From the NCBI GenBank assembly GCA_001001555.1, contig LCKS01000001.1, positions 82,066-146,065 of the forward strand: DNA of 64,000 nt, read 5' to 3'. The notes below the pieces were generated by a model that had not been told where the DNA came from, ran no database searches, and saw only the letters and a list, made by a program, of their open reading frames with translations. The DNA comes from Candidatus Amesbacteria bacterium GW2011_GWC2_45_19 (GTDB lineage Bacteria > Patescibacteriota > Microgenomatia > CAZETR01 > Amesbacteraceae). Shown here piece after piece: positions 6 to 34,943 of the stretch. Each line of letters begins with the position of its first letter. The first letter of the stretch is position 1. The position numbers were made by a program, and so were the translations under genes.

Positions 6-455
6 ATGGTTTCCACCTTTAAGGTGGCAATTATTTTGGGGATTAAAGACAAGCAAAAGATTATTAAATTTGGCACGGTAGGTTTCGCAGGCTATGTGGT
101 CAACGCCACCGCTCTTTATCTCTTCACCAAATTAAATTGGCCCGGCTGGGCCGCCTGGGGTTTGTCCACCGAGTTGGCTATTCTCAATAACTTTACCTGG
201 AACAATATCTGGACTTTCAAAGACCAGCAAATAAACGGTTTGACTATGATTCTGTCTAAATTTTTGCAATTTAACATCACCTCGGCCGGAGGCCTGCTGA
301 TCCAGGTGGTAGTGGGCGTCGCGACAGACTATCTGACCGGCTCGCAATACCGCCAAATTGTTTTGCCTCTGACCATCGCCTTTTTAGTCATGCCCTACAA
401 CTATCTGATGTACACCCTGGTTATCTGGAGAAAAAAGGCGTCCAGTCGGAAATAG
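6..455 (+). CDS. GtrA-family small membrane protein (polysaccharide synthesis/translocation accessory)
   Basis: 149 aa, 4 predicted TM segments, N-terminal K-F-G-x-VG-x-x-G motif typical of the GtrA family; overlaps convergently with the next gene. Confidence 0.55.
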   Translation: MVSTFKVAIILGIKDKQKIIKFGTVGFAGYVVNATALYLFTKLNWPGWAAWGLSTELAILNNFTWNNIWTFKDQQINGLTMILSKFLQFNITSAGGLLIQVVVGVATDYLTGSQYRQIVLPLTIAFLVMPYNYLMYTLVIWRKKASSRK

Positions 456-1467
456 CCGCCGTATTGTGGGCCAGGAAATTTAAACTGTAGAAATACATGG
501 GAATAATTAAGAGCAGCAATGCCCATCTGACCTCTTTTTTCTCCAACACATCAGTTAAACCCAATATAACTACGGGCACCATAGGCAACGAATATCTGGC
601 TATATCCCGGTGCGATACAAATAAAATCACCGCGTAAAATATCGCTCCCCACCACCCCCAGACTGCTGATTTTCTGAACGCCCTGATCACCCCGACCGCT
701 CCGATCAAGTACATCCACAACACGTCTTCCAGCCACCAATTGCCCACCCAGGGCTGATTGCTGTCAAAAACTTTGAACGGCAATGCTTGTAAATGAATAT
801 TGTCCCCGGAATTGAAATATGCCCAGAAATCCCCGGTGCGTAAATAATAAAAACCAAATACGGCCACCAATGCAGCCGGAATCAAAAGCGTGGGCCAAAT
901 TTTTTTATCAAATTTAGACGCCAATACAAAAGCCGGGAACAGCAAAATTCCCGGGCTTTTGGTCAATGTGGCCAGGGCTCCGGCAATGGCCGCCAGCCAA
1001 TACGATTTCTTTCGGAAAGCATATAGGGCAATTACTACAAACAATATAAATAACGTTTCCGGGCTACCGATAGACCGCACCACCCACATTCTCGGCCAGG
1101 CAAACAACCACACCAGACCAGCTATCAGAGGATTTCCCCATTTAAATTCCTCAAAAATTTTGTAAATAGCCAGCGCTGTTACTGCCGAAACTACTAGATT
1201 TATCATCACGGCAGACAGCGGGCTGCCTCCAAAAAGCCAAATCAGGGCGGGGTATAGAGGAAAATGCGCCGGATAATACTCCAGTGGCAGCGGGAAAGAG
1301 AAATTATTACCGATAAACGCTTTGTCATACCAGCTTTTGGCAATCACCACATAATATAGTCCATCGAAGTTCTCATATACTTTCTGCATTCCCACCGGCA
1401 CCCATAGGGCCAATGTCGAAAATACGGAAACTACGGCCAGGATCAGCATATTTCGGCTGATTTTCAT
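421..1467 (-). CDS. Polytopic membrane protein, PIG-V-like (GT76-like) mannosyltransferase family
   Basis: 348 aa multi-TM protein with an FDG-x-YY...AFIG...FPLYPAL motif resembling PIG-V mannosyltransferases; paralog of 33090..34202. Confidence 0.45.
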   Translation of the reverse strand: MKISRNMLILAVVSVFSTLALWVPVGMQKVYENFDGLYYVVIAKSWYDKAFIGNNFSFPLPLEYYPAHFPLYPALIWLFGGSPLSAVMINLVVSAVTALAIYKIFEEFKWGNPLIAGLVWLFAWPRMWVVRSIGSPETLFILFVVIALYAFRKKSYWLAAIAGALATLTKSPGILLFPAFVLASKFDKKIWPTLLIPAALVAVFGFYYLRTGDFWAYFNSGDNIHLQALPFKVFDSNQPWVGNWWLEDVLWMYLIGAVGVIRAFRKSAVWGWWGAIFYAVILFVSHRDIARYSLPMVPVVILGLTDVLEKKEVRWALLLLIIPMYFYSLNFLAHNTAAISDWTPFFSR

Positions 1468-1484
1468 GCTACAATTGTAGCATG
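1465..1484. promoter_or_regulatory. Perfect 20-bp palindrome CATGCTACAATTGTAGCATG whose arms contain both divergent start codons; symmetric TACAAT -10 boxes; candidate bidirectional leaderless promoter/operator
   Basis: Read directly: cat(1465-1467)=start of minus gene, ATG(1482-1484)=start of plus gene, TACAAT on both strands 6-7 nt from each start; only 14 nt intergenic. Confidence 0.5.
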
Positions 1485-3638
1485 TCGAAAGGCGTCTCGG
1501 TAGTTATTCCCGCTTACAATGAACAGGACAATGTTGCCAAGTGCCTGACTTCTGTTTCTTCTGTCATAAAAAAACTTAAACTGGACGCAGAAGTAATCGT
1601 GGTCGATGATGGATCAACTGACCAAACTGGGGAAATTGCCAGGAAGTTTATTAAAAAAATCCCCAATTTAAAAATTGTCACCAATCACCCCAACCGCGGC
1701 TATGGTGGCTCTCTTAAGGCTGGGTTTGCCAAAGCCACTAAAGAATTAATTGCTTTTTTTCCCGCCGATAACCAATTCGATTTTTCCCAAATTTCTCTCT
1801 TACTGGAAAAAATGAAAGAAACCAGCGCTGATATTGTCAGTGGCATGAGAATCCACCGTCAAGATCCCCGGCATCGCCGGCTACTGGCCTGGATGTGGAA
1901 TACATTATTTGTTTCCCCTCTCTTTGGTTTCCTGGCTTTAGATATAGATTGCGGTTTTAAGCTTTTTCGCAGAAGTATATTAAAAAACGCTTATATTCCC
2001 GCGGAAAGGGGAGCTATGATCGATACTCAACTATTTGCTTCTGTGAAAGCTCATGGCCATGCTATCGCCGAAGTCCCCCTGGCTCACTACCCACGCACTT
2101 CGGGAGTTTCCACGGGTGCCAGCCCCAAAGTCATTATTCAATCTCTCATTGATTTGCTTAAATATTGGTGGCAGCTAAAGCAAGAGTTGCTCACTGAAAG
2201 AGGCAAAAATGTTTTCCGCTGGGAAGCCCTGGCTATTGTGGCCATTTTGGCGGCAGCCGCCTTTGTCCGTCTCTACAAAATTGACCAATATATGACTTTT
2301 TTGGGCGACGAAGGCCGGGATGTGTCGGTCGTCCGGGATATGTTAATAGGGCGCAAATTCACCCTGATTGGTCCCGGTACTTCCATTGGCAATATGTACT
2401 TAGGTCCTCTGTATTACTACATGATGCTGTTACCTCTGGCTTTGTTTAATTTTTCTCCCGTCGGGCCTGCTGTCCAAATCGCTTTGTTGGGGATGGCCAC
2501 CGTAGCTCTCTTGTGGTGGGTTGGCCGGCAATGGTTCGGCCGGGTTCCGGCTCTCCTAATTTCTATTCTCTATTCTCTATCTCCTGTCATAATCACCTAC
2601 TCCCGTTCTTCTTGGAATCCCAATATCATGCCTTTTTTTGCGCTTCTTTCCATATATGGTATTTGGAAAGTCTGGCGTCTGGGTTACTGGCGCTGGCTGG
2701 TTGTCACGGCCATCGCTTTCGCCTTCGTCCTCAACTCTCACTATTTAGGTTTATTATTGTTTCCCGTCCTTGGCCTATTTCGGTTCCTATCCAAAAAAAC
2801 TCCGAAAGCTAAATACTATTCTCTAATTTCTATTTTCTCATTTCTAATTTTAATGTCCCCACTTCTGTGGTTTGACCTGCGCCACAATTGGATAAATGTC
2901 AGGGCCGTCACGGCTTTTTTTACCGACCGCCAAACTACGGTTAATCTCAAAGCCTACAAAGCCCTGCCCAATCTTTGGCCTCTTTGGGTGGACATAAACA
3001 CGTCCCTCCTGGCTGCCAAAAATAAGCCGCTCGGGGCCGCCACGGCAATTTTATTGATCGGAGGACTAGTTTATTTAATCAAATCACGCCCCTCAAAAGA
3101 TTTTTGGTTTACTGCCACCTGGATGAGTGTCGGTCTAATCGGTCTGGGCTTATACAAGCAGCATATTTACGACCACTATTATGGTTTTCTTTTTCCAGCC
3201 CCCTTTTTACTCCTGGGCTTTATATTGGAAAAAATTAAAAAGTGGGCTTGGTTAGTTTTTGGGGCGCTGCTTCTGGCAAATATTTCAAATTTCCCCTTGC
3301 GTTTTTCACCCAATAATCAACTTGCTCATACCCAAGAAATTGCCGGATTTATCAAAGAGCAGGCCTCCGGCCAGCCTTTTAATCTTGCTTTAATTGCCAA
3401 AAGAAATTACGACAAGGGCTACGTCTACTTTTTAGATATCCAGAAGGCCCCTTACTACACTATCCACCAAAAACTATCAGATCAATTATTTGTAATTTGC
3501 GAAGACCCGGTTTGTGAACCTATCAACAATCCTTTGTGGGAGATTGCTGCATTCGGCTGGGCTAAAATTGACCGGCAGTGGGAATTTCCCTGGGGCACCA
3601 AACTCTTCCGTCTCGTCCACAATTCTACCGGAAAATGA
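1482..3638 (+). CDS. Fusion protein: N-terminal GT2 (DPM1/ArnC-like polyprenyl-phosphate sugar synthase) + C-terminal GT-C (PMT_2/ArnT-like) membrane glycosyltransferase domain
   Basis: N-term VVIPAYNE...VVDDGSTD...DXD GT2 hallmarks. From about aa 240 there are 10+ TM segments with LGDEGRD...GP...LGPLYYY, matching the start of the next stand-alone GT-C gene. Confidence 0.7.
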   Translation: MSKGVSVVIPAYNEQDNVAKCLTSVSSVIKKLKLDAEVIVVDDGSTDQTGEIARKFIKKIPNLKIVTNHPNRGYGGSLKAGFAKATKELIAFFPADNQFDFSQISLLLEKMKETSADIVSGMRIHRQDPRHRRLLAWMWNTLFVSPLFGFLALDIDCGFKLFRRSILKNAYIPAERGAMIDTQLFASVKAHGHAIAEVPLAHYPRTSGVSTGASPKVIIQSLIDLLKYWWQLKQELLTERGKNVFRWEALAIVAILAAAAFVRLYKIDQYMTFLGDEGRDVSVVRDMLIGRKFTLIGPGTSIGNMYLGPLYYYMMLLPLALFNFSPVGPAVQIALLGMATVALLWWVGRQWFGRVPALLISILYSLSPVIITYSRSSWNPNIMPFFALLSIYGIWKVWRLGYWRWLVVTAIAFAFVLNSHYLGLLLFPVLGLFRFLSKKTPKAKYYSLISIFSFLILMSPLLWFDLRHNWINVRAVTAFFTDRQTTVNLKAYKALPNLWPLWVDINTSLLAAKNKPLGAATAILLIGGLVYLIKSRPSKDFWFTATWMSVGLIGLGLYKQHIYDHYYGFLFPAPFLLLGFILEKIKKWAWLVFGALLLANISNFPLRFSPNNQLAHTQEIAGFIKEQASGQPFNLALIAKRNYDKGYVYFLDIQKAPYYTIHQKLSDQLFVICEDPVCEPINNPLWEIAAFGWAKIDRQWEFPWGTKLFRLVHNSTGK

Positions 3639-5753: not shown

Positions 5754-6516
5754 ACCTCTGCTTTCGGTCATAATTCCCGCCTACAACGAAGAAAAAAGGC
5801 TGGGTTCTCATTTGGAACTGGTATTGAAATTTTTTCGTTCTCGCTACCCCAACTTTGAGTTGATTATTGTCGACGACGGAAGTAACGATGCTACCGCCCG
5901 GACAATATCTGCCGCAATCCCCAAAGAACCTCGCGCTCATCTCATTACATACCAACCCAACCGGGGCAAAGGTTATGCCGTAAGAAAAGGAGTTCTGGCT
6001 TCGCGCGGCGACCCGGTTCTTTTTATGGATGCCGATTTGTCTACCCCCCTGTCCCAGGTTCCTAAAATTTTGCAGGCCCTTTGGGGGGCTGATATTGTTA
6101 TCGGTTCCCGGGGTCAGGCCAAATCCGATATCCGTCAGCGCCCTCCACTTTTCCGCAGATTAGCTTCGTTTATATTTGACCAGATTAAATATGCTTTAGT
6201 CGGCTTGCGCCGCTTCAAGGATACTCAATGCGGATTTAAAGTTTTCCGCGGATCTATCGCTCGCCAATTGTTTGCCCAAAGCCAAGTTAACCGTTTTATG
6301 TTTGACGTAGAGATTTTATATCTGGCTGAACAAGCTAGAATGATTATTCGCGAAATACCGGTCACCTGGGCCGACGCTCCCGATAGCCACGTGCGTTTTT
6401 GGGAAGGAGTGGTCAGCATGTTCCGTGACCTCTGGCGCATCCGCCGCATACACCAGGGACACTCCTTTAAGGTTAGTCCTTTTAAGGCTAAAGATCGATC
6501 ACGGAGTTCTGAATAA
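5740..6516 (+). CDS. GT2 polyprenyl-phosphate sugar synthase (DPM1/GtrB-like); C-terminal ~20 codons read through REP-like repeat copy A
   Basis: LSVIIPAYNEE...IIVDDGSNDAT...MDADLS...QCGFKVF; last residues ...HQGHSFKVSPFKAKD are encoded by the REP sequence. Confidence 0.7.
   Translation: MASVKPLLSVIIPAYNEEKRLGSHLELVLKFFRSRYPNFELIIVDDGSNDATARTISAAIPKEPRAHLITYQPNRGKGYAVRKGVLASRGDPVLFMDADLSTPLSQVPKILQALWGADIVIGSRGQAKSDIRQRPPLFRRLASFIFDQIKYALVGLRRFKDTQCGFKVFRGSIARQLFAQSQVNRFMFDVEILYLAEQARMIIREIPVTWADAPDSHVRFWEGVVSMFRDLWRIRRIHQGHSFKVSPFKAKDRSRSSE
6456..6483 (+). repeat. REP-like repeat copy A (GGGACACTCCTTTAAGGTTAGTCCTTTT)
   Basis: One of three near-identical direct copies flanking the RAYT gene. 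Confidence 0.7.
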
Positions 6517-7180
6517 CGCTAATAGAGGCCTCTTCTAATCTTTGATCTTCCACAAAAGACTCATATGAGTTTGTACCAGCCGCAGCAAAGTATCCCAAGA
6601 TGTCTTGTGGCTTTACCCACTCCTGGTTGATCCTCCCCAGGTAATTGGGATAAGATGACGGTTGGGGACACTCCTTTAAGGTTAGTCCTTTTTGAATAGG
6701 GTTGCGATGGATGTATCTAGTGAGATGAAGGAGTTGTTCTTCAGTTTCGACCAAAACAGCCTTGTAAGTATCCTGGAAAAGACCGCCAACCCGTTTATCA
6801 TGACGGTGATTAAAGTATTGAGCATAACGGGTAGCAAGAGATCTCATGAATTTCTCAATTCCTCGCTCATTCTTTTGTTTTATCAATAAATGAAAGTGGT
6901 TTGGCATCAGACAGTAAGCCCGTAAATCAATTTCTCCAGCGAAATTATTCATCCTCAACAACTTAGCTGCTTCCGATTTTTCCTTTGGTGAAGAATCGGG
7001 ATCCGCAATTATCTGAGCTAAACTACTTACGTCTTTAGGGGACAAATACTCTTTTAAGTAAGACAAAAAGACAGCTTCGTCTTGATGGTCAACAAATATC
7101 GTTCTTTTTTCCACCCCCCGGTTATAGATATGATAATAACCGTTAGGAAGATAATCTTTGACTTTGTTTCTGGCTGGCAT
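6488..7180 (-). CDS. REP-associated tyrosine transposase (RAYT; IS200/IS605-like HUH Y1 transposase)
   Basis: N-term YHIYNRG, HUH motif NHFHLLI, catalytic Tyr context RYIHRNP. ORF reads through REP copy B, so the true C-terminus may be shorter (~160 aa). Confidence 0.65.
   Translation of the reverse strand: MPARNKVKDYLPNGYYHIYNRGVEKRTIFVDHQDEAVFLSYLKEYLSPKDVSSLAQIIADPDSSPKEKSEAAKLLRMNNFAGEIDLRAYCLMPNHFHLLIKQKNERGIEKFMRSLATRYAQYFNHRHDKRVGGLFQDTYKAVLVETEEQLLHLTRYIHRNPIQKGLTLKECPQPSSYPNYLGRINQEWVKPQDILGYFAAAGTNSYESFVEDQRLEEASISVIQNSVIDL
6665..6693 (+). repeat. REP-like repeat copy B
   Basis: GGGACACTCCTTTAAGGTTAGTCCTTTTT; lies inside the 3' part of the RAYT ORF. Confidence 0.7.
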
Positions 7181-7182
7181 AG

Positions 7183-7274: not shown

Positions 7275-8733
7275 ATGAAAATCAACGCTAAAACGATAAT
7301 AATTGGACTTTCAATATTACTTCTGGCAACTACCCTTCGTTTTTGGAATCTCAATTCATTGCCCATTTTTGCGGATGAAGCCATTTATGTGCGCTGGTCC
7401 CAGGTCATGCGCGCCGAATCCTCCTTACGTTTCTTGCCTCTCTCGGACGGCAAACAGCCTCTATTCATGTGGCTCACCATTCCTTTTTTGCGCATTGGCT
7501 GGCCTGGGCACAGTCATAGGTATCGGCCTAGCTTCCTACTTTCTATTTTCTAATATCAGGTTATCAATACTCACTACCCTGCTGGCCGCTGTCCTGCCAT
7601 ACCTGGTTTTCTTCGACCGGATGGCCCTGGCAGATAGTTTATTGGCTATGTTTTTAGTTTGGACATTTAATTTTTCTTATTTGTCTTTTATTCACCGGCG
7701 GTTAGACTTAGCCATGTTTGCCGGTTTCGCTCTGGGATTTGCCTGGCTGACTAAATCTCCCGCCATCTTCGCTTTCTTTCTCCTCCCTCTCAATTTTCTT
7801 TTTATACCTAAATATTCAGCCAAAAATATTCTAATTTCTAGTTTCTATTTTCTGGTTTCTGTCGCCATTGCCTTCGGCATGTATAATATTTTGCGTTTGG
7901 GCCCGGAGTTCCATCAGATTGCCTTGCGTAATGCAGACTATGTTTTTCCGCTGGCCGAAATTTTGCGTCATCTGCTGGATCCGCTCCTGCCCCATCTTAA
8001 AGATTCTTTTCTCTTTTTTGCCTACTTTCTCACTCCGCTAGGGCTGCTGGCCGCTATTACCGGCATTCTGGCCGGAGGCCGGTCTCGTTGGCGGACTCGT
8101 CTGGTCTTGGCCGCTTGGTGGCTAGGGCCGGTGCTGGTTCAATCCGCCATCGCCAGAGCCTTCACTGCCCGTTATTTATTGTTCACCGTTCCCTTTGCCG
8201 CGATTTTGATTGGCCACGCTTTGGAACATATTGGTCAGCGTACCCAAAAGCACTTTCTATCAATGGCTGCCGCCGGTCTGATTATCCTTCCGGCTTTGGC
8301 CATGGATTATTTGGCTGTTGCCCGCCCTGAATCTTTACCCCTACCCCGGATCGAACGGTCTGGCTATTTGGAAGACTGGACAGCCGGTTACGGTCTGCGG
8401 GACGTAGCCCAACGATTGCGCCAGTACGCCGCTGCGGGTCCGGTTTTGGTCGGCAGCGAAGGCTTTTTTGGCACCCCATTTAACGCTTTGCAACTATATT
8501 TAAACGATGTTTCCAACGTCCGTGTCATTGGCGTTGGTGTCTGGATAGACTCCGTCCATGAAAAACTTAAGAATTCCTTAGCTGATAACCAGGTGTTTTT
8601 AGTTGTTAATTCCACCCGCCTGCACGCCGACCCGGATCAAATAGGGCTAAAACTCATCGTCAGTTACCCCAAAGCTTACCGTCCCGACGGCACCCGCGAG
8701 TATCTGCTATTTTTCCAAGTTTTATCTAAATGA
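7275..8733 (+). pseudogene. GT-C (PMT_2-like) glycosyltransferase interrupted by a +1 frameshift in a T6 tract (7484..7489)
   Basis: Frame 0 gives the genuine N-terminus (ADEAIYVRW...KQPLFMWLTIPFL) and stops at 7553. The +1 frame continues with genuine TM-rich sequence (CALAGLGTVIG...) to 8733. Removing one T restores a single 485-aa ORF. Confidence 0.55.
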
Positions 8734-10388
8734 AAAAAGACCTGTTATTGCTTGTGTTGCTGGTGTTGCCTGCTTTTGCCCCGCTATTGCAGCGGGGCTA
8801 CTTCTCCATGCACGACGATATGCAATCTATCCGCCAGATGAAAATGGATCAATGCCTGGCCGACTTGCAATTTCCCTGCCGCTGGAGCTTGGATTTAGGC
8901 TATGGCTACGGATACCCGCTTTTCAATTATTACCCGCCCCTGCCGTATCTTCTCGGTCAGCCTTTCCGCTGGTTAGGCTTTCAGTACATTGACGTCGTCA
9001 AAATAGTCGGGATTTTGGGATTTGTGACCGCCACCTCATTCATGTACTTATTGGGTAAAGAGTTTTGGGGCCGTTTGGGCGGGCTGATTGCGGCCGCGTT
9101 TTACACATATGCTCCATATCACTCCGTAGATTTTTACGTCCGGGGAGCCATGAATGAATTTTGGGCTCTGGCTCTTTTCCCGGCCATCTTCCTCACCACC
9201 TACAAACTCATCTCTACCTCCCAAAAAAAGTGGATTCCCTGGGTGGCTCTTTCAGTTGCCGGCCTCATGCTTTCCCACAACCCCATCCTTATGATTTTTG
9301 CACCGGTTTTGGTTATTTGGTGTCTTTTCTGGATGTTTAAATTTAGGTCAATTAGATTAATTAGGTCAATTAGAAATTTATTCGTCTCCGCTCTCTGGGC
9401 CCTGGGCCTGGCCGCCTTCTTTACCCTGCCGGTTTTGTTTGAAACCAAGTTTGTTTCAGTCTGGACACTGACTGCCGGCTATTTCAACTACCTGGCCCAC
9501 TTTTTGGATTTAAACCAGATATTTTTGCGTATTAATTGGGGCTACGGGGAATCGGTTTACGGCCGGGGAGATACCATGAGTTTTGCCCTGGGCTACCTGC
9601 ACTGGATCATTCCCACTCTTATTTTAATTCTCCTACCGTTCTCCCAAAAACTTAAAAACTTTTCAGCTTTAATTTTGACTGTTGCATTTTTAGTTTTGAG
9701 TTCTTTATTTATGTCTCACTTCAAGGCCACTCCTATCTGGCAAGCATTTCCGCCTTTGGAATTCCTACAATTTCCTTGGCGCTTCCTGACCCTGGCTATC
9801 TTCGCCGCCTCTTTTCTCTCCGGTGCCATCGCTCAAATTTTCCCTAAAAAAATCTTAATCATTTTAATCAGCTTAGTTATCTTAATTAACGGCAATTACT
9901 TCCGTCCCCGTCAGTGGTACCCGGACACGACCGACGCTAAAAAATTCTCTGGCAAATCGTGGCAGTTACTCATTACTTCCGGAATTTTTGACTATCTGCC
10001 CATCTGGGCTCCGCAACCCCCAGCTGATCCGGCCTTAGAGGACATAAAATTTATCAGCGGCGATGGTATCTACTCTACTCTAATTAAAAAAACCAACCGC
10101 CAAGAATTTTTAATCACGATCCAGACGCCCACTGCCGTGGCCGAATTACAGACCTATTACTTCCCGGGATGGAAAATTTGGGTCGATGACAAGCAAGTCA
10201 AAATTGATCCCTCCCGCGACAAAGTCCTGGGCCGGATGCAAATCGATCTTACTCCCGGCAAACATCAAGTCCTCGCCCGCTTCACCGCCACCCCCGTCAG
10301 AACTATCGGCAACACTTTGTCTCTTATAGCTTGGGTGGCTTTAGTTTGCCATTGGTGGAGTCGAAGACCATTTGTCCGCGGTCGTTAG
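8730..10388 (+). CDS. Large polytopic membrane protein, family B (putative GT-C-like glycosyltransferase/polymerase); paralog of 24584..26089
   Basis: 552 aa, >10 TM; shared motifs FPCRW..D.GYGYP.FN.Y, YAPY..VD.YVRGA.NE, C-terminal TP(I/V)RTIGN + TM; contains an 18-nt in-frame tandem duplication at 9343..9378. Confidence 0.45.
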   Translation: MKKDLLLLVLLVLPAFAPLLQRGYFSMHDDMQSIRQMKMDQCLADLQFPCRWSLDLGYGYGYPLFNYYPPLPYLLGQPFRWLGFQYIDVVKIVGILGFVTATSFMYLLGKEFWGRLGGLIAAAFYTYAPYHSVDFYVRGAMNEFWALALFPAIFLTTYKLISTSQKKWIPWVALSVAGLMLSHNPILMIFAPVLVIWCLFWMFKFRSIRLIRSIRNLFVSALWALGLAAFFTLPVLFETKFVSVWTLTAGYFNYLAHFLDLNQIFLRINWGYGESVYGRGDTMSFALGYLHWIIPTLILILLPFSQKLKNFSALILTVAFLVLSSLFMSHFKATPIWQAFPPLEFLQFPWRFLTLAIFAASFLSGAIAQIFPKKILIILISLVILINGNYFRPRQWYPDTTDAKKFSGKSWQLLITSGIFDYLPIWAPQPPADPALEDIKFISGDGIYSTLIKKTNRQEFLITIQTPTAVAELQTYYFPGWKIWVDDKQVKIDPSRDKVLGRMQIDLTPGKHQVLARFTATPVRTIGNTLSLIAWVALVCHWWSRRPFVRGR

Positions 10389-10434
10389 GAAAAGGGATTA
10401 GTTTTGCGTTTGTCGAAATATCTTTACATCAACG

Positions 10435-10448
10435 GTAACGATCGTTAC
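10435..10448. promoter_or_regulatory. Perfect 14-bp palindrome GTAACGATCGTTAC in intergenic region
   Basis: Read directly; sits between family-B gene stop and the VapBC cassette. Confidence 0.3.
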
Positions 10449-10516
10449 TGGCGGTGTAAATATGATATAATCAGAAAATAGCTTTTGCCCTCGGATCCAA
10501 ACTGAATATTGAATTC

Positions 10517-10555
10517 CGATAATGTAAAAATAACTTCATGGCGGAAGAAGTGACG
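10517..10555 (+). repeat. Left copy of 39-nt direct repeat bracketing the VapBC cassette; includes a relic start codon and 6 codons (MAEEVT) of wzx
   Basis: cgATAATGTAAAAATAACTTCATGGCGGAAGAAGTGACGC matches 11240..11278 at about 36 of 39 positions with 1 indel. Confidence 0.7.
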
Positions 10556-10564
10556 CCAGCGAAC

Positions 10565-10602
10565 TTCAAGGAGTTGACAAGGGTTCCTTGAAGGGGTATG
10601 CT
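10565..10602 (+). promoter_or_regulatory. vapB promoter with operator-like inverted repeat
   Basis: TTGACA (10574-10579), 17-nt spacer, TATGCT (10597-10602); 8-bp inverted repeat TTCAAGGA/TCCTTGAA straddles the -35. Confidence 0.45.
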
Positions 10603-10611
10603 TTCCTTGAA

Positions 10612-10857
10612 ATGACTTATACTGCTACTCTCACTGGCAAGCAACAGCTCACTATCCCGGCCGATCTCTTCCGCCGACTCAATTGGAAAATTGGCCAAAA
10701 AGTTCTTATTTCCCAAAACGGCAGCGTGTTATCTGTCACGGCTGCCTTAGACCTGATAGACAGACTGGCAGGATCGGTACCATTACCCAAAAAGTTTAAG
10801 GGGTTGACCATTGATCAGATTATTGACCGGGCCACTAGTGAAAATCACTCCAAATGA
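10612..10857 (+). CDS. vapB: VapB antitoxin, AbrB/MazE/SpoVT-type swapped-hairpin DNA-binding domain
   Basis: MTYTATLTGKQQLTIPADLFRRLNWKIGQKVLI; 4-nt ATGA overlap with the PIN gene. Confidence 0.6.
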   Translation: MTYTATLTGKQQLTIPADLFRRLNWKIGQKVLISQNGSVLSVTAALDLIDRLAGSVPLPKKFKGLTIDQIIDRATSENHSK

Positions 10858-11234
10858 CATTTGTCGACACTAATTATTTTTTGAGATTTCTTCTAGCTGA
10901 TGTCTCCTCCCAACACAAGCTGGCCAAAGCCCTTTTCCAACAAGCCGCCGGGGGCAAAGTTTCTTTGTTTACATCCGCCGTCGTCATCTTTGAAATATAT
11001 TGGGTTCTTCTCTCTGTATATAGCAAAAACAAAGACCAAATTACCGCCACTTTAGACTCTTTACTAGACATGAGTTTTATAGATTTCGAGCACCACTCCT
11101 TGCTAAAACAAGCCATATCTCTATACGCACATTCTTCTCTCGGATTAGTCGACGCATTTAATCTTTTCTATGCCAAATCTTTGAACGCTAAGGATTTTAA
11201 AACCTTTGACACCACGCTCTCCCGCCACTTCTAA
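10854..11234 (+). CDS. vapC: VapC toxin, PIN-domain ribonuclease
   Basis: FVDTNYF (Asp1), IFEIYWVL (Glu), LVDAFNL (Asp) PIN acidic residues; 126 aa. Confidence 0.65.
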   Translation: MTFVDTNYFLRFLLADVSSQHKLAKALFQQAAGGKVSLFTSAVVIFEIYWVLLSVYSKNKDQITATLDSLLDMSFIDFEHHSLLKQAISLYAHSSLGLVDAFNLFYAKSLNAKDFKTFDTTLSRHF

Positions 11235-11239
11235 ACTAC

Positions 11240-11278
11240 CTATAATGTAAAATGACTTCATGGCGGAAGAAGTCACGC
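11240..11278 (+). repeat. Right copy of 39-nt direct repeat (native promoter/start of wzx)
   Basis: cTATAATGTAAAATGACTTCATGGCGGAAGAAGTCACGC. Confidence 0.7.
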
Positions 11279-12720
11279 TGGGGGATGTAGATTTGACCAC
11301 AGTCAAAGCCAGAACCGTTTCGGGCGTAGTCACGCTTATCAGCCGCTCATTCTTGCTCCAATTCGTAGCCACCGGCGGCTTTTTGGCCCTGTCTATTTTT
11401 TTGGGCCGTCCGGAAATTGGCCTGTTTATCGCCGTTAACGACCTGGTTTCCATCTTAGGCTATTTTTCCGACATCGGCCTGGCCGCATCCTTGATTCAAA
11501 AAAAGGACCAAGTAACCATCACCGACCTGCGTACCACCTTCACCATCCAGCAAATTATAGTATTAATTCTCATTTCTCTATCTCTATCTCTATCTCCGTG
11601 GCTGTTTAATTTCTACCACATTGGCAATGGAGGAACCTGGCTGTTTTATAGCTTATTGGCAGCTTTTTTCCTGGCTTCCCTGAAAACTATCCCTTCGGTT
11701 ATTTTGGAGCGCAAACTGCAATTTAAAGAGCTGGCGGCCGTCGAGGTGGTAGAGACCGTCATCTTCTATAGTATTGCGGTTCTTTTGGCTTGGCGGGGCG
11801 GGGGAGTCATGTCATATGCCTGGGCGGTCGTCTTCCGGGGCCTAATCGGAACTGTTATGATTTACTGGCTATCTCCCTGGAAAATCGGTCTGGCTGTCTC
11901 CATATCTTCTCTCAAATCTCTGCTCTCATTTGGATTGCCATATCAAATAAATTCTTTAGTGGCCACCGTCAAGGACCGGTTTATAAATATTATTCTCTGG
12001 AAAATTATCGGCGCCGACGGGGTGGGCATTATTGGCTGGGCTCAAACCTGGTCCCAAAAACCCCTGCGCTTTATTATGGATAATGTCACTCGGGTCACCT
12101 TCCCCAGCTTTGCTCGTCTCCAAGACAATCCCGCAGAATTGCGTCAAGCAATTGAGCGCACCCTGTTTTTTATCACCCTGATTACTTTCCCGATTCTGGC
12201 CGGCCTGGCCGTCTTTGCTCCCCAATTAATCACGCTCATTCCCCGTTATTCCAAATGGCAGCCGGCTCTTCTGGCTCTGGTTTTGTATTGTTTTAATTCT
12301 GCCTGGGCCAGCGTCTCTACTCCCCTGACCAATACCCTTAACGCCTTGGGCAAAGTCAAAACTAATACTTACTTAATGCTTATGTGGACCGCCCTCACCT
12401 GGATACTTGTCCCATACTTTGCCTACCGCCTAGGCTACAACGGAGTGGCCTATGCTACAGCTTTGATTGCCCTTTCGTCAGTCGTTCCCATTATTATCGT
12501 CAAGCGCCTAACCCACTTTAGTTTAATAAACGGCGTTCTCAAACCTTTAACTGCCACTTTGGTAATGATTGCCGGAGCTCTTCTGCTCACTCCGTTGCCC
12601 TTGATAATTAACATGATTATCTCCCTGTTACTATTTACCATTACTGTTTACTTATTGGTCGGTCCGGATCTATTTGTGCAAACATGGAAAAAAATAATCA
12701 CCGCCCGCCTTGGTCGCTAA
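11260..12720 (+). CDS. wzx: Wzx-type oligosaccharide flippase (MOP/polysaccharide biosynthesis protein family)
   Basis: 486 aa, ~14 TM, N-terminal layout typical of O-unit flippases; internal (TCTCTA)x3 microsatellite at about 11575..11595. Confidence 0.6.
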   Translation: MAEEVTLGDVDLTTVKARTVSGVVTLISRSFLLQFVATGGFLALSIFLGRPEIGLFIAVNDLVSILGYFSDIGLAASLIQKKDQVTITDLRTTFTIQQIIVLILISLSLSLSPWLFNFYHIGNGGTWLFYSLLAAFFLASLKTIPSVILERKLQFKELAAVEVVETVIFYSIAVLLAWRGGGVMSYAWAVVFRGLIGTVMIYWLSPWKIGLAVSISSLKSLLSFGLPYQINSLVATVKDRFINIILWKIIGADGVGIIGWAQTWSQKPLRFIMDNVTRVTFPSFARLQDNPAELRQAIERTLFFITLITFPILAGLAVFAPQLITLIPRYSKWQPALLALVLYCFNSAWASVSTPLTNTLNALGKVKTNTYLMLMWTALTWILVPYFAYRLGYNGVAYATALIALSSVVPIIIVKRLTHFSLINGVLKPLTATLVMIAGALLLTPLPLIINMIISLLLFTITVYLLVGPDLFVQTWKKIITARLGR

Positions 12721-30675: not shown

Positions 30676-31490
30676 TGAAGTATCACCCCTCCTCACTACG
30701 TTCGGTTTCCCCTCTTAAATTAAGAGGGGACAAAGGGGTGATATTGTCTGTTGTTCTTGCCACTCGCAATGAGGAGGCCAATCTAACTCGTTGTCTGGAG
30801 GCGGTAAAATCGATTGCCAATGAGATAATCATTGCGGACGAGCAATCAACCGACAAAACAGTGGGAATAGCCAAAAAATTCGGGGCAAAAGTCATTTCTG
30901 TTCCGCATCAGGAAAATTTCCATATCACCAAAAATATCGCCATAGACGCCGCCCGTGGAGACTGGATCCTCCAATTAGATGCCGACGAAGTCGTCTCCCC
31001 CGAACTGGCTTGCGAAATTGTCTCTACTATCAACCATGAATCATCAACCATGAACGGTTATTGGGTTAACCGCCGCAATTGGTTTCTCACCCGCTTCTTA
31101 TCTAAAGGCGGCCAATATCCGGATCCCACTCTCCGCCTGTACCGCCGGGGAAAAGGAAGACTTCCGGCCAAAGACGTGCACGAGCAAGCACAGATCCAGG
31201 GTCCAACCGGCCGCTTGCGGAACGATTTGTACCACTACCGGGATACCAGTTTCGCCAAGTACTTAGATGGTTTTAATCGCTATTCATCGTTTTTGGCGGC
31301 AAATATTAACCCCGAGGTCAATTTGCGGCAAACTCTCAACTACCTGGGCTGCAAACCAGTGGTAACGTTTTGTAAAATCTATTTTCGTCACCGGGGTTAC
31401 GTTGACGGTTACCCTGGTTTTGTCTTTGCCCTCTTTTCCGGCCTCACCCACGCCATCGCCTATATTAAATATTGGCAAAGGTTATTATGA
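30675..31490 (+). CDS. GT2 glycosyltransferase (short soluble type); true start possibly GTG at 30738
   Basis: VVLATRNEE...EIIIADEQSTDKT...LDADEVV. The first 21 codons (KYHPSSLRSVSPLKLRGDKG) are encoded by a palindromic mini-element and are probably not native coding sequence. Confidence 0.65.
   Translation: MKYHPSSLRSVSPLKLRGDKGVILSVVLATRNEEANLTRCLEAVKSIANEIIIADEQSTDKTVGIAKKFGAKVISVPHQENFHITKNIAIDAARGDWILQLDADEVVSPELACEIVSTINHESSTMNGYWVNRRNWFLTRFLSKGGQYPDPTLRLYRRGKGRLPAKDVHEQAQIQGPTGRLRNDLYHYRDTSFAKYLDGFNRYSSFLAANINPEVNLRQTLNYLGCKPVVTFCKIYFRHRGYVDGYPGFVFALFSGLTHAIAYIKYWQRLL
30681..30743 (+). repeat. Palindromic mini-element (same architecture as 23326..23380) at gene junction
   Basis: Outer perfect 10-bp arms TATCACCCCT / AGGGGTGATA; inner CCCCTCTTAA-A-TTAAGAGGGG (30709..30729). 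Confidence 0.65.
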
Positions 31491-32464
31491 TCAAGGTTGG
31501 TTTCATTACGGCTCCTCTTCACGACGCTAACGCAGTCCGCGGCGTCGGGTCATATACCCGCCGCCTTCTTCCGGAACTCAAAAAACAAACCTCTGATTTT
31601 GGATTTGAAATCGTTGAAAATGACACGTCTGCAGAGATTATCCACTATCCGTATTTTGATTTATTTCGGCACACTTTACCAATATTCAAAGATGCCAAGA
31701 CTATAGTTACCGTCCATGACGTTATTCCTTTGGAATTTCCCGATCATTATCCACCCGGCCTGCGCGGCTGGTTTAATCTGCAACTACAAAAACTAGCCCT
31801 GAGCGAAGTCGAAGGGGTGATTACCATTTCGTACCACTGCGTTAAGACAATTCATAAGTACTTAAACGTACCTCACGGCAAGTTGAAATTGGTTTACGAA
31901 GCCGCTGACTCCATATTTAAAAAGATTTCTAAACCCAAAAATAAATTTAACCTGCCCAAAAAATTCGTTCTCTACGTTGGAGATGTAAATTGGAATAAGA
32001 ATATACCCAATTTAATTAAAACCTGTGAACAAATAAATTACCCATTGGTAATGGTGGGTAAACAAGCAGCTGAAGTAGAAAAATTGGACTTAAATCATGC
32101 CGAACTGCGGCATTTACAAGGAGTAGATTGGAGTAAAGTTATGAAATTGGGATTCGTGTCCGCTGCAGACCTAGTGGACATTTACAATTTGGCCACTGTT
32201 TATTGCCAGCCTTCATTTTCAGAAGGTTTTGGCCTGCCGGTGGTGGAAGCTCTGGCTTGCGGTACTCCGGTGGCCTGCAGTAATACTTCATCTTTGCCGG
32301 AAATAGCCGGCGACTCTGCCACCTACTTTGATCCCCATGATGTAAACGATATGGCTAAAGCTATCAAAAAGGCCAAGCCTAGCACTGTACAACCCAAGTT
32401 TTCCTGGGCCAAAGCCGCCGCCCAAACTTTGCAAGTCTACCAGGAAGTATTAGAGTTGGTTTAA
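31487..32464 (+). CDS. GT4 (GT-B fold) glycosyltransferase
   Basis: PSFSEGFGLPVVEALACGTPVACSNTSSLPE; ATGA overlap with upstream gene; last 30 nt duplicated downstream of BrnTA. Confidence 0.7.
   Translation: MIKVGFITAPLHDANAVRGVGSYTRRLLPELKKQTSDFGFEIVENDTSAEIIHYPYFDLFRHTLPIFKDAKTIVTVHDVIPLEFPDHYPPGLRGWFNLQLQKLALSEVEGVITISYHCVKTIHKYLNVPHGKLKLVYEAADSIFKKISKPKNKFNLPKKFVLYVGDVNWNKNIPNLIKTCEQINYPLVMVGKQAAEVEKLDLNHAELRHLQGVDWSKVMKLGFVSAADLVDIYNLATVYCQPSFSEGFGLPVVEALACGTPVACSNTSSLPEIAGDSATYFDPHDVNDMAKAIKKAKPSTVQPKFSWAKAAAQTLQVYQEVLELV
32425..32452 (+). repeat. Left copy of 28-nt direct repeat bracketing the BrnTA cassette (3' end of GT4 gene)
   Basis: AACTTTGCAAGTCTACCAGGAAGTATTA vs 33049..33076 AACTTTGCAAGTCTACCGGGAAGTATTA (27/28). 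Confidence 0.7.
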
Positions 32465-32467
32465 CTA

Positions 32468-32496
32468 TTGACAATCGATATTGTTTGTCATACACT
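32468..32496 (+). promoter_or_regulatory. brnT promoter with operator-like inverted repeat; -10 box 7 nt upstream of GTG start (leaderless)
   Basis: TTGACA(32468-32473)-17 nt-TACACT(32491-32496); inverted repeat TGACAA...TTGTCA overlaps the -35 and spacer. Confidence 0.45.
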
Positions 32497-32502
32497 ATAT
32501 AA

Positions 32503-32787
32503 GTGAAATATGTGGATTGGAATGCAGCCAAAAACGAGATTCTAAAAACAGAGAGAGGAATTTCGTTTGAAGATGTTATGGCAGCATTCGTAGAAGAAGG
32601 TTTACTTGACATTATTAAACATCCAAATGAACAAAAGTATTCTCATCAAAAAATGATTATAGTTAATGTTGACGATTATGTTTATCTGGTTCCGTTTGTC
32701 GAAGACGATGAAAAGATTTTTTTGAAAACCATACTGCCCAGCCGAGAAGCAACAAAACGTTATCTAATCCAAAAAGCAAAAAAATGA
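32503..32787 (+). CDS. brnT: BrnT-like toxin (DUF497 ribonuclease toxin of type II TA)
   Basis: GTG start; VDWNAAKNEILKTERGISFEDVMAAF...IIVNVDDYVYLVPFVEDDEKIFLKTILPSREATKRY fits DUF497/BrnT layout. Confidence 0.6.
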   Translation: MKYVDWNAAKNEILKTERGISFEDVMAAFVEEGLLDIIKHPNEQKYSHQKMIIVNVDDYVYLVPFVEDDEKIFLKTILPSREATKRYLIQKAKK

Positions 32788-33050
32788 GCCAAAAATATTT
32801 TGATTTAACTTCAGAAGAACAAAGATTACTAACTTCATTCGAAGCTGGTGAATGGCGTAGTGTCGCGGATTTGGAAAAATCTAAGAGACTGTATCGTCAG
32901 TATGCAGCAAACACTCTGGCTAAAGCCAAGAATGTAAATTTAAGATTGGCAGAAAAAACAGTCTTGAAATTTAAAGCAAAAGCAGCTTCCGAAGGAATTC
33001 CTTATCAGACTCTCATGTCTTCAGTACTTCACAAGTACGCAAACCAATAA
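32784..33050 (+). CDS. brnA: BrnA-like antitoxin (RHH/CopG-like, DUF4415-type)
   Basis: C-terminal VNLRLAEKTVLKFKAKAASEGIPYQTLMSSVLHKY is the BrnA signature; ATGA overlap with brnT. Confidence 0.6.
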   Translation: MSQKYFDLTSEEQRLLTSFEAGEWRSVADLEKSKRLYRQYAANTLAKAKNVNLRLAEKTVLKFKAKAASEGIPYQTLMSSVLHKYANQ

Positions 33051-33076
33051 CTTTGCAAGTCTACCGGGAAGTATTA
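33049..33076 (+). repeat. Right copy of 28-nt direct repeat bracketing the BrnTA cassette
   Basis: Starts at the last two nt of the brnA stop codon. Confidence 0.7.
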
Positions 33077-33089
33077 AAATGATCCGTAC

Positions 33090-34202
33090 ATGAGTTTTTC
33101 CCGCCTGTTTAAGATTTTTGTCCTCTGGCAAGCCGCAATCATTATCGTGACTATGGCCGCCCAATATTCTTCACTGCCCCTGCGGGAAACGTTTTTGGGC
33201 AGTGGCACTCAAGCGTATGTGGAAAAGCCCTGGGCTTACTCCCGGGAAAATTTTGACGGCATGCATTACACGTATATCGCCAGCCGCGGCTATGGCTATT
33301 CCCAGCAGGCTTTCTTCCCTCTTTATCCGGCTCTCATGCGCCGCCTGATGACCCTGCCAATTCTTAACAACGCCGTCACTGCCGGCGTTTTAATTTCTGT
33401 AGTGGCTTTTCTGGCCGGCCTGTATCTGTTCATCAAATTAATTCTTTTGGATTATTCCTCATCTGTTGCTAAGTGGACTATCCTGGCCCTGCTGTTTTTT
33501 CCCGCCAGTTTCTTCTTTACTTCCGTATACACCGAAGGCCTATTCTTTTTCCTGACTATTGCCGCTTTTTACTCCGCCCGCACCCGCCACTGGTTGCTGG
33601 CGGGTATATTCGGGGCCCTGGCCAGCTACACCCGTTTCATCGGCATCTTTCTCTTTCCGGCTCTTTTAATCGAATGGTGGCAGCAGGGCCGCCGCTTCAA
33701 GCACTTCTTGCCTCTTCTTTTGATTCCGCTCGGCTTAATAATTTACATGAATTATTTGAATAAGACAACGGGGGACCCCTTAGCCTTTTTCCACGTCCAG
33801 GTGAATTTTGCCCAACTGCGAAGCGAGAAACTCATTCTGCTTTATCAAGTTTTCTGGCGTTACCTCAAAATGCTTCTGACCGTCAACCGTTCCGACCCGC
33901 TGTATCTGACCATCGTTCTCGAATTTGTGACCGGAGTGGTATTTCTAGTAACCACTGTCTACTCGTTTATCAAACACCGCCTGTCCTACGCCGTCTTTAA
34001 CTTCTTGACCTATATTATCCCCACCTTGACCGGCACCTTTACCTCTTTGCCCCGCTACGTTCTGCTTTGTTTCCCCTCGTTCCTGCTAATTGGCGAGTTA
34101 TTATCCCGCTCGCCCCTAGCCCGCAAAATTATCCTCGGCATCTTCGCTGTCGCCTTTATTATTTTTCTCTCCTTCTTCGCCCGGGGATATTGGGTGGCAT
34201 AA
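33090..34202 (+). CDS. Polytopic membrane protein, PIG-V-like (GT76-like) mannosyltransferase family; paralog of 421..1467
   Basis: FDGMHYTYIASRGYGYSQQAFFPLYPAL motif; 370 aa, ~9 TM. Confidence 0.45.
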   Translation: MSFSRLFKIFVLWQAAIIIVTMAAQYSSLPLRETFLGSGTQAYVEKPWAYSRENFDGMHYTYIASRGYGYSQQAFFPLYPALMRRLMTLPILNNAVTAGVLISVVAFLAGLYLFIKLILLDYSSSVAKWTILALLFFPASFFFTSVYTEGLFFFLTIAAFYSARTRHWLLAGIFGALASYTRFIGIFLFPALLIEWWQQGRRFKHFLPLLLIPLGLIIYMNYLNKTTGDPLAFFHVQVNFAQLRSEKLILLYQVFWRYLKMLLTVNRSDPLYLTIVLEFVTGVVFLVTTVYSFIKHRLSYAVFNFLTYIIPTLTGTFTSLPRYVLLCFPSFLLIGELLSRSPLARKIILGIFAVAFIIFLSFFARGYWVA

Positions 34203-34943
34203 ATGAACACTATTAAATTGTCGGTAGTTATGCCGGTCTACCGGCAGGAAAAGAACGTGGTCCGATATCTGCGGGCTCTGGGTAAAGTCTTGGCGGGATT
34301 GAATGTTGTTTACGAAATGATTTGCGTTGTAGACGGCCAAGTGGACAATACTTATGAGAATGCCAAAAAGGCCAAAATCCCAAAACTTAAAGTCTTCACT
34401 TATCCCAAAAATCAGGGGAAAGGCAACGCGGTCCGGTTTGGCATGTCCAGAGCCAGGGGGGAAGTAATCGGTTTTGTAGACGGAGGATTTGACCTTAAAT
34501 ATTCATCCATTCCTTTGGCCTTGGAGCATATGAAGTGGTACAACGCTGATATTATGATCGGATCCAAACGTCATCCCGCTTCCAAAGTCACCTATCCATG
34601 GCAGAGACGGATTTTGTCTTGGGGATATCAAATGGGCGTAAGGCTACTTTTTGGAATTAATGTTAGAGATTCACAGGTTGGTATTAAATTCTTCAAAAGA
34701 AAAGTTGTTAAAGAAATAATGCCAAAATTATTGATAAAAGCTTTTGCTTTTGATATCGAAATGTTGGCAGTAGCCAACCGGATGGGCTTTTCCAGAATTT
34801 ACGAATTTCCCATAGAATTAAAATTGGAATTTGGCACATCTTCAATTGCCTCAATCGGCTTTTTCAAGACTAGCTGGAATATGCTGTGGGACACTCTGGC
34901 TGTCTTTTACCGCCTGAAAATCCGGTGCCACTACGATAAATGA
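34203..34943 (+). CDS. GT2 polyprenyl-phosphate sugar synthase (DPM1/GtrB-like)
   Basis: LSVVMPVYRQEKNV...CVVDGQVDNT...FVDGG...; GC falls from ~48% to ~33% inside this gene. Confidence 0.65.
   Translation: MNTIKLSVVMPVYRQEKNVVRYLRALGKVLAGLNVVYEMICVVDGQVDNTYENAKKAKIPKLKVFTYPKNQGKGNAVRFGMSRARGEVIGFVDGGFDLKYSSIPLALEHMKWYNADIMIGSKRHPASKVTYPWQRRILSWGYQMGVRLLFGINVRDSQVGIKFFKRKVVKEIMPKLLIKAFAFDIEMLAVANRMGFSRIYEFPIELKLEFGTSSIASIGFFKTSWNMLWDTLAVFYRLKIRCHYDK

Follow-up and report, generated by a model that had tools for sequence, protein, structure and literature searches.

Probable insertion of a vapBC toxin-antitoxin operon with long target duplication into a Candidatus Amesbacteria glycosylation operon

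A vapBC Operon between Two Copies of the wzx Start

We analyzed a 64-kb stretch of DNA from Candidatus Amesbacteria bacterium GW2011_GWC2_45_19, an uncultured groundwater bacterium of the Microgenomates (the window; loci of relatives that were compared with it carry labels of the form L0xx or L1xx), in which a vapBC toxin-antitoxin (TA) operon is enclosed by two copies of a short direct repeat. Upstream lies the gene for a 552-residue membrane protein (8730-10388, plus strand; weak Pfam match to PTPS_related), and downstream lies a gene for a Wzx-like flippase of the MOP family (11260-12720, plus strand; 486 residues; Pfam Polysacc_synt_3/Polysacc_synt, E 1.4e-47). Local alignment of positions 10516-10556 with 11239-11278 pairs 41 with 40 nucleotides, with 37 identities and one 1-nucleotide indel, and an ungapped core (10527-10556 and 11249-11278) is identical at 28 of 30 positions. 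When a 30-mer is used as the query and up to three mismatches are allowed, only two sites are found in the 64 kb, for an expectation of 0.00 from 100 shuffles. An earlier reading made from the sequence alone had described a near-identical 39-nucleotide direct repeat bracketing vapBC, and this description holds, with the extent now set at 41/40 nucleotides.

Each copy includes ATAATG and an ATG, and encodes MAEEVT. The right copy (11239-11278, plus strand) is the functional one: it carries -10-like hexamers and the real start of wzx, with the ATG at 11260, and Wzx orthologues in other genomes have the same N-terminal residues as those opened by this copy. The left copy (10516-10556, plus strand) is composed of the last bases and stop codon of a relic higA antitoxin gene discussed below, a 17-nucleotide spacer, and the first 19-20 nucleotides of wzx. 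Its duplicated wzx start codon opens a relic open reading frame (ORF) of 18 codons (10538-10591, plus strand; MAEEVTPANFKELTRVP*) that extends into the vapB promoter. The view that the upstream copy heads a relic ORF and the downstream copy the real gene, already proposed by the sequence-only reading, is upheld by the sequence itself and by the orthologue N-termini. The duplicated target is a segment of ~40 nucleotides across the wzx translation start (about -21 to +20), of which the right copy starts wzx and the left copy is a dead relic.

It had also been suggested that the repeat duplicates a promoter. Hexamers resembling -10 elements (TATAAT and TAAAAT) are present, but a promoter scan of the repeat yields no full promoter, and so this label is unproven. 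An Rfam search of the repeat and leader returned nothing at E values up to 1. Positions 11253-11275 in the right copy could form a 7-bp hairpin, TGACTTC...GAAGTCA, around the wzx start codon (-5.1 kcal/mol, z = -2.5), and in sites that lack the cassette (L011:3985-4003) a TATAAT hexamer is located 6 nucleotides 5' of the wzx ATG. The start-codon hairpin and the position of this hexamer hint that wzx initiation is leaderless or controlled by structure.

The stretch between the two copies is 682 nucleotides long and holds a promoter-like site, operator half-sites, vapB and vapC. A self-contained module had been predicted there from the sequence alone, and only its predicted length of 684 bp needs correction. 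The antitoxin gene vapB (10615-10857, plus strand) encodes 80 residues with an AbrB/MazE (SpoVT-type) DNA-binding domain (PF04014 MazE_antitoxin, 26.4 bits, cut-off 24.7). The toxin gene vapC (10854-11234, plus strand) encodes a PIN-domain protein of 126 residues (PF01850, E 2.7e-12, 47.8 bits, cut-off 23.6), whose acidic quartet D5, E47, D100 and D119 is intact and is conserved in ten homologues. The vapB stop and the vapC start overlap in an ATGA at 10854-10857. The control region (10564-10611, plus strand) includes a promoter-like TTGACA-17-TATGCT at 10574-10602 (10 of 12 matches in a promoter scan), overlapped by three half-sites, TTCAAGGA / TCCTTGAA, at 10564-10572, 10585-10593 and 10603-10611, which are predicted to form an operator. 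These promoter-like and half-site elements are conserved in L096, L105, L100, L102 and L106. With its PIN-domain toxin and upstream DNA-binding antitoxin, the cassette is classified by sequence as a putative VapBC type II TA module.

The limits of the cargo can be set by comparison with a separate conserved locus, ftsH (minus strand), vapBC (plus), tRNA_bind (minus), where relatives of this VapC that are 65-80% identical reside. Homology between the ftsH-locus operons and the cassette at wzx begins at the left operator arm, ~10563, and ends at AAACTACCT, the first base of the native stop. The cargo (10563-11241, plus strand) is therefore exactly a minimal vapBC operon from operator to stop. 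Six preceding junction or filler bases, CAGCGA (10557-10562, plus strand), match neither the target nor the ftsH-locus copies. Native VapC proteins end in ..RRFQTT*, and the right junction at wzx destroys the native stop. As a result, VapC in L096 runs to a TGA inside the repeat and has 133 residues; the window acquired a new stop by a CAA-to-TAA change, which gives the 126-residue protein, 3 codons below the family norm. The ftsH gene beside the conserved vapBC locus (L100:516-3647 and L105:141-3293; 1043-1050 residues) contains an intein with a LAGLIDADG homing-endonuclease domain, and ftsH in other lineages is intein-less, with 632-636 residues.

Chimeric joins at repeats can occur in metagenome-assembled genomes, and the sequence-only reading had cautioned that the repeat might be an assembly artefact; the same impression could arise if a mixture of strains, some carrying the cassette and others not, had been collapsed. 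Such an origin is highly improbable. The two-copy structure is found in at least seven independent assemblies (JGI 3300025308, 3300025030 and 3300009285; NCBI GCA_001002035.1 and GCA_000999805.1; ENA ERZ27254745 and ERZ27254739), in contigs of 25-227 kb that derive from several projects and assemblers, and the VapC sequence occurs in 48 blocks of the indexed collection. Moreover, the copies differ from each other at 4 of 41 positions, the same four in every assembly, unlike the products of collapse or duplication artefacts. Because the structure is identical in many independent assemblies, we conclude that it is not created by assembly.

The wzx Junction in Related Genomes

A Wzx search restricted to one genome per species returned 17 related loci. 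Three of these (L011, L015 and L024, whose Wzx proteins are 86, 71 and 64% identical) are empty sites that carry a single copy of the repeated segment, GGTATAATGATTCCATGGCCGAAGAAGTTACGC. In these relatives the upstream membrane-protein gene abuts or overlaps wzx; in L011, the upstream ORF ends 31 nucleotides past the wzx ATG. Since the two genes overlap ancestrally at the wzx start, an insertion that duplicates this segment is needed to keep both neighbors usable. The single-copy sites bear out the suggestion, first made from the sequence alone, of a vapBC insertion with long target duplication, and we consider it probable that the operon entered this packed glycosylation operon in that way.

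The same junction holds other cargo elsewhere. In L016, L019 and L098 it is occupied by a cassette composed of a Gp49/HigB-like toxin gene (E 1.6e-25 and 5e-25) and a helix-turn-helix (HTH) antitoxin gene (Pfam E 1.6e-25 for the toxin and 1.1e-12 for the antitoxin in L016/L019). This higBA cassette is flanked by a repeat of ~34-40 nucleotides of the same wzx-start segment. The toxins begin with MDSEVTLG, MAEKVTPG or MTEEVTPG, residues encoded by duplicated wzx codons that continue in frame into the body of the toxin, and the higBA-type cassette has no start codon of its own. In L098 (1335-1661) the HigB-like toxin is 7 residues short of those in L019 and L016 (..FYKVESFLN versus ..FFESARGEKIVESFLS), which suggests that it is beginning to decay.

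Further loci differ again at this junction. L012 contains 2.3 kb of other genes together with relics of the higBA-type cassette, and L013, L014 and L018 contain small ORFs without known identity. At L022:2988-3674 (Candidatus Amesbacteria GWB1_47_19), a homologue of a REP-associated tyrosine transposase (RAYT; REP, repetitive extragenic palindromic), 228 residues long, lies in the junction between the upstream gene and wzx, and no duplicated wzx start was detected there. The wzx junction is a hotspot of repeated insertion, in which cassettes build up into arrays.

Age and History of the Insertion

In the window, a remnant of an earlier cassette at this site precedes the left copy of the repeat: the 3'-terminal part of a gene for a HigA-like HTH antitoxin (10473-10522, plus strand, with the stop TAA at 10520-10522). 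Positions 10473-10515 align with the higA 3' end of L019 with 38 of 43 identities and one 2-nucleotide gap (score 54; shuffle maximum 30, n=300). The first bases of the left copy include the stop of this relic, and the right copy carries those bases too. Because both copies contain the end of higA, the duplication that flanks vapBC was made, or used, at a site that had already held a higBA-type cassette. Neither this relic nor the hotspot with its arrays had been part of the sequence-only reading. An imperfect palindrome with 24-nucleotide arms, ATCTTTACATCAACGGTAACGATC / GATCGTTACTGGCGGTGTAAATAT (10420-10463), is located past the upstream gene and ahead of the higA relic, and the C-terminus encoded by the upstream gene in the window is rearranged relative to its orthologues.

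The cassettes are arranged in both orders. The window reads higA relic, repeat, vapBC, repeat, wzx, opposite to L098, which reads vapBC, repeat, higBA, repeat, wzx. In L096 and L097 the upstream gene is followed by vapBC and wzx, and in L098 and L099 by vapBC, higBA and wzx. L096 and L098 are 100% identical over 1330 + 1452 + 1542 nucleotides of flank (4.3 kb), and their sole difference is the repeat-flanked higBA. This difference is a very recent gain or loss of higBA through the repeat.

The lineage of L096-L099 also contains the closest VapC (91% identical), at the same junction. The window and L096 share the right junction of vapBC, and at the left junction L096 matches the window except that it lacks 23 nucleotides, GGCGGAAGAAGTGACGCCAGCGA. 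This arrangement reads most simply as one insertion with long duplication, followed by deletion of the relic in the L096 lineage.

These observations also bear on whether vapBC could instead be ancestral at this site and vertically inherited, with a repeat that arose by local tandem duplication and with "empty" relatives that lost the cassette by repeat-mediated deletion. Such deletion would leave exactly one copy, as is observed, and the lineages closest by Wzx (the window and L096/L098, 90.7% identical in amino acids) both carry vapBC with the same right junction. However, the empty sites occur in lineages whose Wzx proteins are 64-86% identical and have the compact layout of overlapping genes. 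In addition, the nearest other members of the VapC family reside at a different conserved locus and retain the native stop that is destroyed at the wzx junction, and the left copy includes the stop of the other cassette's antitoxin, which places the duplication after that cassette.

Sequence divergence weighs on the same question. Nucleotide identity between the window and L096 is 91.5% for the vapBC cassette and ~80% for the flanks. Synonymous divergence (dS) for this pair is 0.17 for vapB and 0.32 for vapC, and for the four flanking genes it is 1.02, 1.08 and, in two cases, saturated, such that the cassette values are 3-6 times below those of the flanks. A second TA cassette in the window, brnTA (see below), has dS values of 0.50 (brnT) and 0.58 (brnA) in comparison with L108, with flanks at 0.93 and 1.43. 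For L098 and L019, the values are 0.29 for higB, 0.90 for higA and 2.2 for wzx. The cassettes are younger than their flanks, with synonymous divergence 2-6 times lower, which indicates that they moved between lineages into the same site. Taken with the junction evidence, this makes vertical inheritance of vapBC a distinctly poor explanation of the locus.

The insertion is nonetheless not "fresh", as the sequence-only reading had supposed. The four differences between the copies are present in every assembly, the same cassette and right junction occur in another lineage at 91.5% nucleotide identity, and the native vapC stop, once destroyed at the junction, was later replaced by a nonsense mutation.

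Similar Insertions at Other Gene Junctions

The sequence-only reading had also raised the possibility of other TA copies with gene-edge duplications, and one is present in the same window at 32425-33076. The left copy of a 28-nucleotide duplication (32425-32452, plus strand) forms the 3' end of a GT1-family glycosyltransferase gene (31472-32464), and the right copy (33049-33076, plus strand; 27 of 28 identical) is located just 5' of a gene for a PIG-V-like mannosyltransferase (33090-34202). Between them lies a minimal brnTA operon (32453-33048, plus strand) with brnT at 32503-32787 and brnA at 32784-33050. It has a promoter-like TTGACA-17-TACACT at 32468-32496 that overlaps a palindrome, and the cassette spans promoter to stop with a GC content of 34.6%, versus 43.2% for the window. 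The Pfam match to BrnT_toxin (E 6e-7, 30.1 bits) falls under the cut-off of 34.5, and matches to BrnA_antitoxin and CopG_antitoxin are at or above their cut-offs. The repeat is 30/30 in L108, and the site is empty, with a single copy, in L029, L030 and L032.

Two further events involve DUF4143 AAA ATPase genes. In L028, such a gene at the next junction downstream of the brnTA site is flanked by a 39-nucleotide repeat (35 of 39 identical), and the duplicated segment corresponds to positions 34170-34207 (plus strand) of the window, which are a single-copy empty site for this event. In L100, another is found between vapC and tRNA_bind, flanked by a 36-nucleotide repeat (35 of 36), with empty sites in L102 and L106. 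In all events the repeat takes in the 3' terminus of the upstream gene together with the initiation region of its downstream neighbor, or else two convergent 3' ends. The signature recurs in several independent events.

When the window was scanned for direct repeats that are 20 nucleotides or longer and spaced by 250-3000 nucleotides, five pairs were returned: the two TA repeats, two pairs of copies of a 28-mer associated with a RAYT-like gene (see below), and one pair of paralogues. The vapBC and brnTA repeats each occur exactly twice in the 64 kb.

Other cassettes were noted at these junctions and elsewhere. In an unrelated context, L107:3501-5925 contains a brnTA that is 85% identical to that of the window, followed by an array with a 76-nucleotide repeat, an AbiEii TA pair, the repeat again (73 of 76), an alpha/beta hydrolase gene and a partial repeat. 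This array may be a longer example of serial insertion with target duplication. In L108 (2540-4300), the junction past the PIG-V-like gene holds an AbiEi/AbiEii pair and a remnant of the promoter region that belongs to the ATPase cargo of L028; no repeat flanks this AbiE insertion, and hence the same operon junctions take cassettes repeatedly, with or without duplication. A second DUF4143 AAA ATPase gene in L028 (2688-4004, 438 residues) lies where the window has brnTA; no repeat was detected around it, and the stop of this ATPase gene overlaps a GTG start of the downstream gene.

Mobility Genes and Cassette Ends

The inserts of the window hold TA genes only, with no mobility gene within or beside them. 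Among the ~57 proteins of the window that were scanned, we found no integrase, transposase or recombinase except for a single RAYT-like gene 3.3 kb upstream. No terminal inverted repeats that pair the two cassette ends were found, and the ends share no motif. The repeats of different sites have no sequence in common and no shared hairpin. Inspection of the junctions by eye revealed at most 1-4 nucleotides of microhomology, which is not convincing.

The RAYT-like gene (Y1_Tnp) occupies 6488-7180 on the minus strand. A 28-mer, GGGACACTCCTTTAAGGTTAGTCCTTTT, is present in three direct copies, at 6456 (past the RAYT stop, where it doubles as the 3' end of the neighboring GT2 gene), at 6665 (inside the ORF) and at 7182 (in the 5' UTR, with an AAGGAG ribosome-binding site). 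Weak extra copies are located at 30180 and 46894, and none at the cassettes. The RAYT gene in L011 is truncated and bounded by a similar 29-mer, and that of L065 is bounded by palindromic 29-mers. The window as a whole (1-64000) is a glycosylation island with genes for GT2, GT1/GT4, PMT_2-like and PTPS_related proteins, PIG-V-like membrane proteins, Wzx, epimerases, DegT, FkbM methyltransferases and tandem paralogues; its sole other genes are RAYT and the two TA cassettes.

Several known carriers were considered and set aside. A transposon, an insertion sequence (IS) or a miniature inverted-repeat element (MITE) was rejected on account of the missing terminal inverted repeats and of a duplication of 28-41 nucleotides rather than less than 15 bp. 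An integron with attC sites was rejected because the 64 kb contain no integrase and the repeats lack shared sequence or hairpin. Transposases of the Y1 HUH type of the IS200/IS605 family are not known to duplicate the target on insertion and require hairpin ends, and mobilization by RAYT or IS200/IS605 was rejected because the 28-mer is absent from the cassettes and target duplication is present. Finally, a phage or viral carrier was rejected because no close relative of VapC or BrnT was found in IMG/VR. Comparison of both toxins with solved structures and NCBIfam provided no name, and vapBC has no close relative among solved structures.

The main rival to insertion with long target duplication is a dedicated enzyme acting in trans (an integron-like recombinase, a Cas1- or casposase-like protein, or a RAYT-type HUH enzyme) that cuts ~30-40 bp apart and thereby captures promoter-to-stop cassettes in arrays without an integrase. 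Such an enzyme would account for the duplication of nearly the same ~40-nucleotide segment by two unrelated cassettes, for repeat lengths of 28-41 nucleotides across five events, for the precise cassette boundaries and for arrays in both orders, and a candidate might be seen in the RAYT-like gene upstream or in the RAYT of L022 at the very same junction. Against this, RAYT is the only such gene in the 64 kb, Y1 HUH enzymes are not known to generate target duplications, and the cassettes lack the RAYT-associated 28-mer. Moreover, the repeats have no sequence or structure in common between sites, the cassette ends carry neither motif nor inverted repeats, the 76-nucleotide repeat of L107 forms no hairpin (z = +0.86) and is thus unlike attC, and insertions without repeats exist at the same junctions. 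We therefore regard a dedicated enzyme as unlikely. Similarly doubtful is the broader proposal that Amesbacteria, and perhaps bacteria of the Candidate Phyla Radiation (CPR) generally, capture cassettes without an integrase by means of a ~30-40 bp ruler, re-use the duplicated target as an attachment site, and build integron-like arrays of TA and ATPase cassettes in essential operons.

A Possible Route of Insertion

For insertion with long target duplication, the initial step would probably be illegitimate and independent of a recombinase, in which foreign DNA is joined into a break with staggered ends or else between sister copies. Alternatively, replication might switch templates out of the target and then back into it. 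Only those insertions that spare both overlapping neighbor genes would be retained. Later, ordinary homologous recombination, acting on the repeats or on the neighboring genes, could excise, re-integrate and transfer the cassette between related strains and so build arrays with copies of one repeat between the cassettes. This would account for the occurrence of both cassette orders, for strains that are otherwise identical but differ by a cassette, and for the younger age of the cassettes relative to their flanks. The repeats are probably used for later homologous exchange, besides having been generated by insertion. Inserts flanked by repeats should be easily deleted, and an addictive TA cargo would resist such loss, which would explain why addiction modules are over-represented.

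Several observations weigh against this interpretation. The initial duplication step is unobserved, and no junction exhibits clear microhomology. That two unrelated cassettes duplicated nearly the same wzx segment, and that repeat lengths lie within a narrow range (28-41 nucleotides), could reflect an enzymatic ruler and not random breaks filtered by selection. The cargo ends match stop codons to the base, which is tidy for illegitimate recombination, although the deletion bias of small genomes could explain it. Insertions without repeats occur at the same junctions (the 438-residue ATPase of L028 and the AbiE pair of L108). In any single presence/absence pair, insertion and repeat-mediated deletion are indistinguishable. 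Lastly, the contrast in dS is uncalibrated against housekeeping genes, and frequent recombination at polysaccharide loci could inflate the divergence of the flanks.

How chromosomal TA modules spread outside plasmids, phages, transposons and integrons is poorly understood. The present cases provide a searchable signature, namely a minimal cassette, a gene-junction duplication of 28-41 nucleotides, single-copy empty sites and arrays. This pattern generalizes over several events and is testable in existing metagenome data. It suggests that TA modules may move by this route without any transposase, and that selfish cassettes can still enter genomes so compact that their genes overlap. Addiction modules may be the survivors among repeat-flanked insertions that are otherwise unstable.

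Comparison with Known Systems

As a member of the VapBC family the module itself is nothing unusual: like other members, it has a PIN toxin that carries four acidic residues, preceded by an antitoxin of the AbrB/MazE type with a 4-nucleotide gene overlap. The half-sites over its promoter-like element may form the palindromic operator that is seen in the family. The arrays resemble those of integrons such as the Vibrio super-integrons, in which TA cassettes with their own promoters are separated by repeats and vary in order between strains; integron TA cassettes are thought to stabilize the array (PMC2654758). Unlike integrons, however, the loci described here have no IntI and no attI, and their repeats are local target copies that differ at every site rather than attC hairpins. 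Site-specific integrative islands with duplicated att cores, such as those that target tRNA genes, are likewise flanked by direct repeats of 30-50 bp, which restore one end, 3' or 5', of the gene that is hit. Here, in contrast, neither the insert nor its vicinity encodes an integrase, the cargo measures just 0.6-1.5 kb, and the repeats are unrelated between sites. Chromosomal loci of the ccdO157 type likewise place a lone TA operon between conserved housekeeping genes, where it is present, decayed or absent depending on the strain (PMC3184786); for ccdO157, the accessible description links the plasticity to REP elements and not to target duplication.

The closest parallel is found in restriction-modification units (Nobusato et al. 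2000, Gene 259:99; Furuta, Abe and Kobayashi 2010, PMC2853133). The criteria set there for insertion with long target duplication are a repeat of over 30 bp, a sibling genome whose empty site has one copy, and the absence of a mobility gene (PMC2853133); gene fusion occasionally occurs at the junction, and the mechanism is unknown, although DNA breakage by the cargo has been suggested (PMC2853133, PMC3874152). In both settings, a small addiction-type unit without a mobility gene is flanked by direct repeats derived from the target, siblings carry a one-copy empty site, the repeats often overlap gene ends with fusion at the junction, and the repeats have been proposed to serve later amplification or release. 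The repeats around vapBC (41/40 nucleotides), higBA (34-40 nucleotides) and the two ATPases (39 and 36 nucleotides) exceed the 30-bp threshold of Furuta et al. 2010, whereas that of brnTA, at 28-30 nucleotides, is borderline. Likewise, the empty sites have a single copy, no mobility gene accompanies the insert, and the repeat is not a multicopy element.

The two settings differ in that the host here belongs to the CPR, the cargo consists of type II TA modules with RNase toxins and of DUF4143 ATPases, the repeats measure 28-41 nucleotides rather than 45-420 bp, and serial events at the same site yield arrays. Because the toxins are RNases, DNA cleavage by the element itself cannot be the trigger of insertion in the TA cases, and if these share the process used by restriction-modification units, cleavage by the cargo cannot be required. 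In the literature searched, we found no description of type II TA cassettes with long target duplication, or of such insertions in CPR bacteria, and relative to that literature the signature extends a little-known mode of mobility from restriction-modification systems to RNase-type TA modules. Since the cargo is not a restriction-modification system, we file the vapBC locus as a variant of insertion with long target duplication rather than as a member of the class as originally defined.

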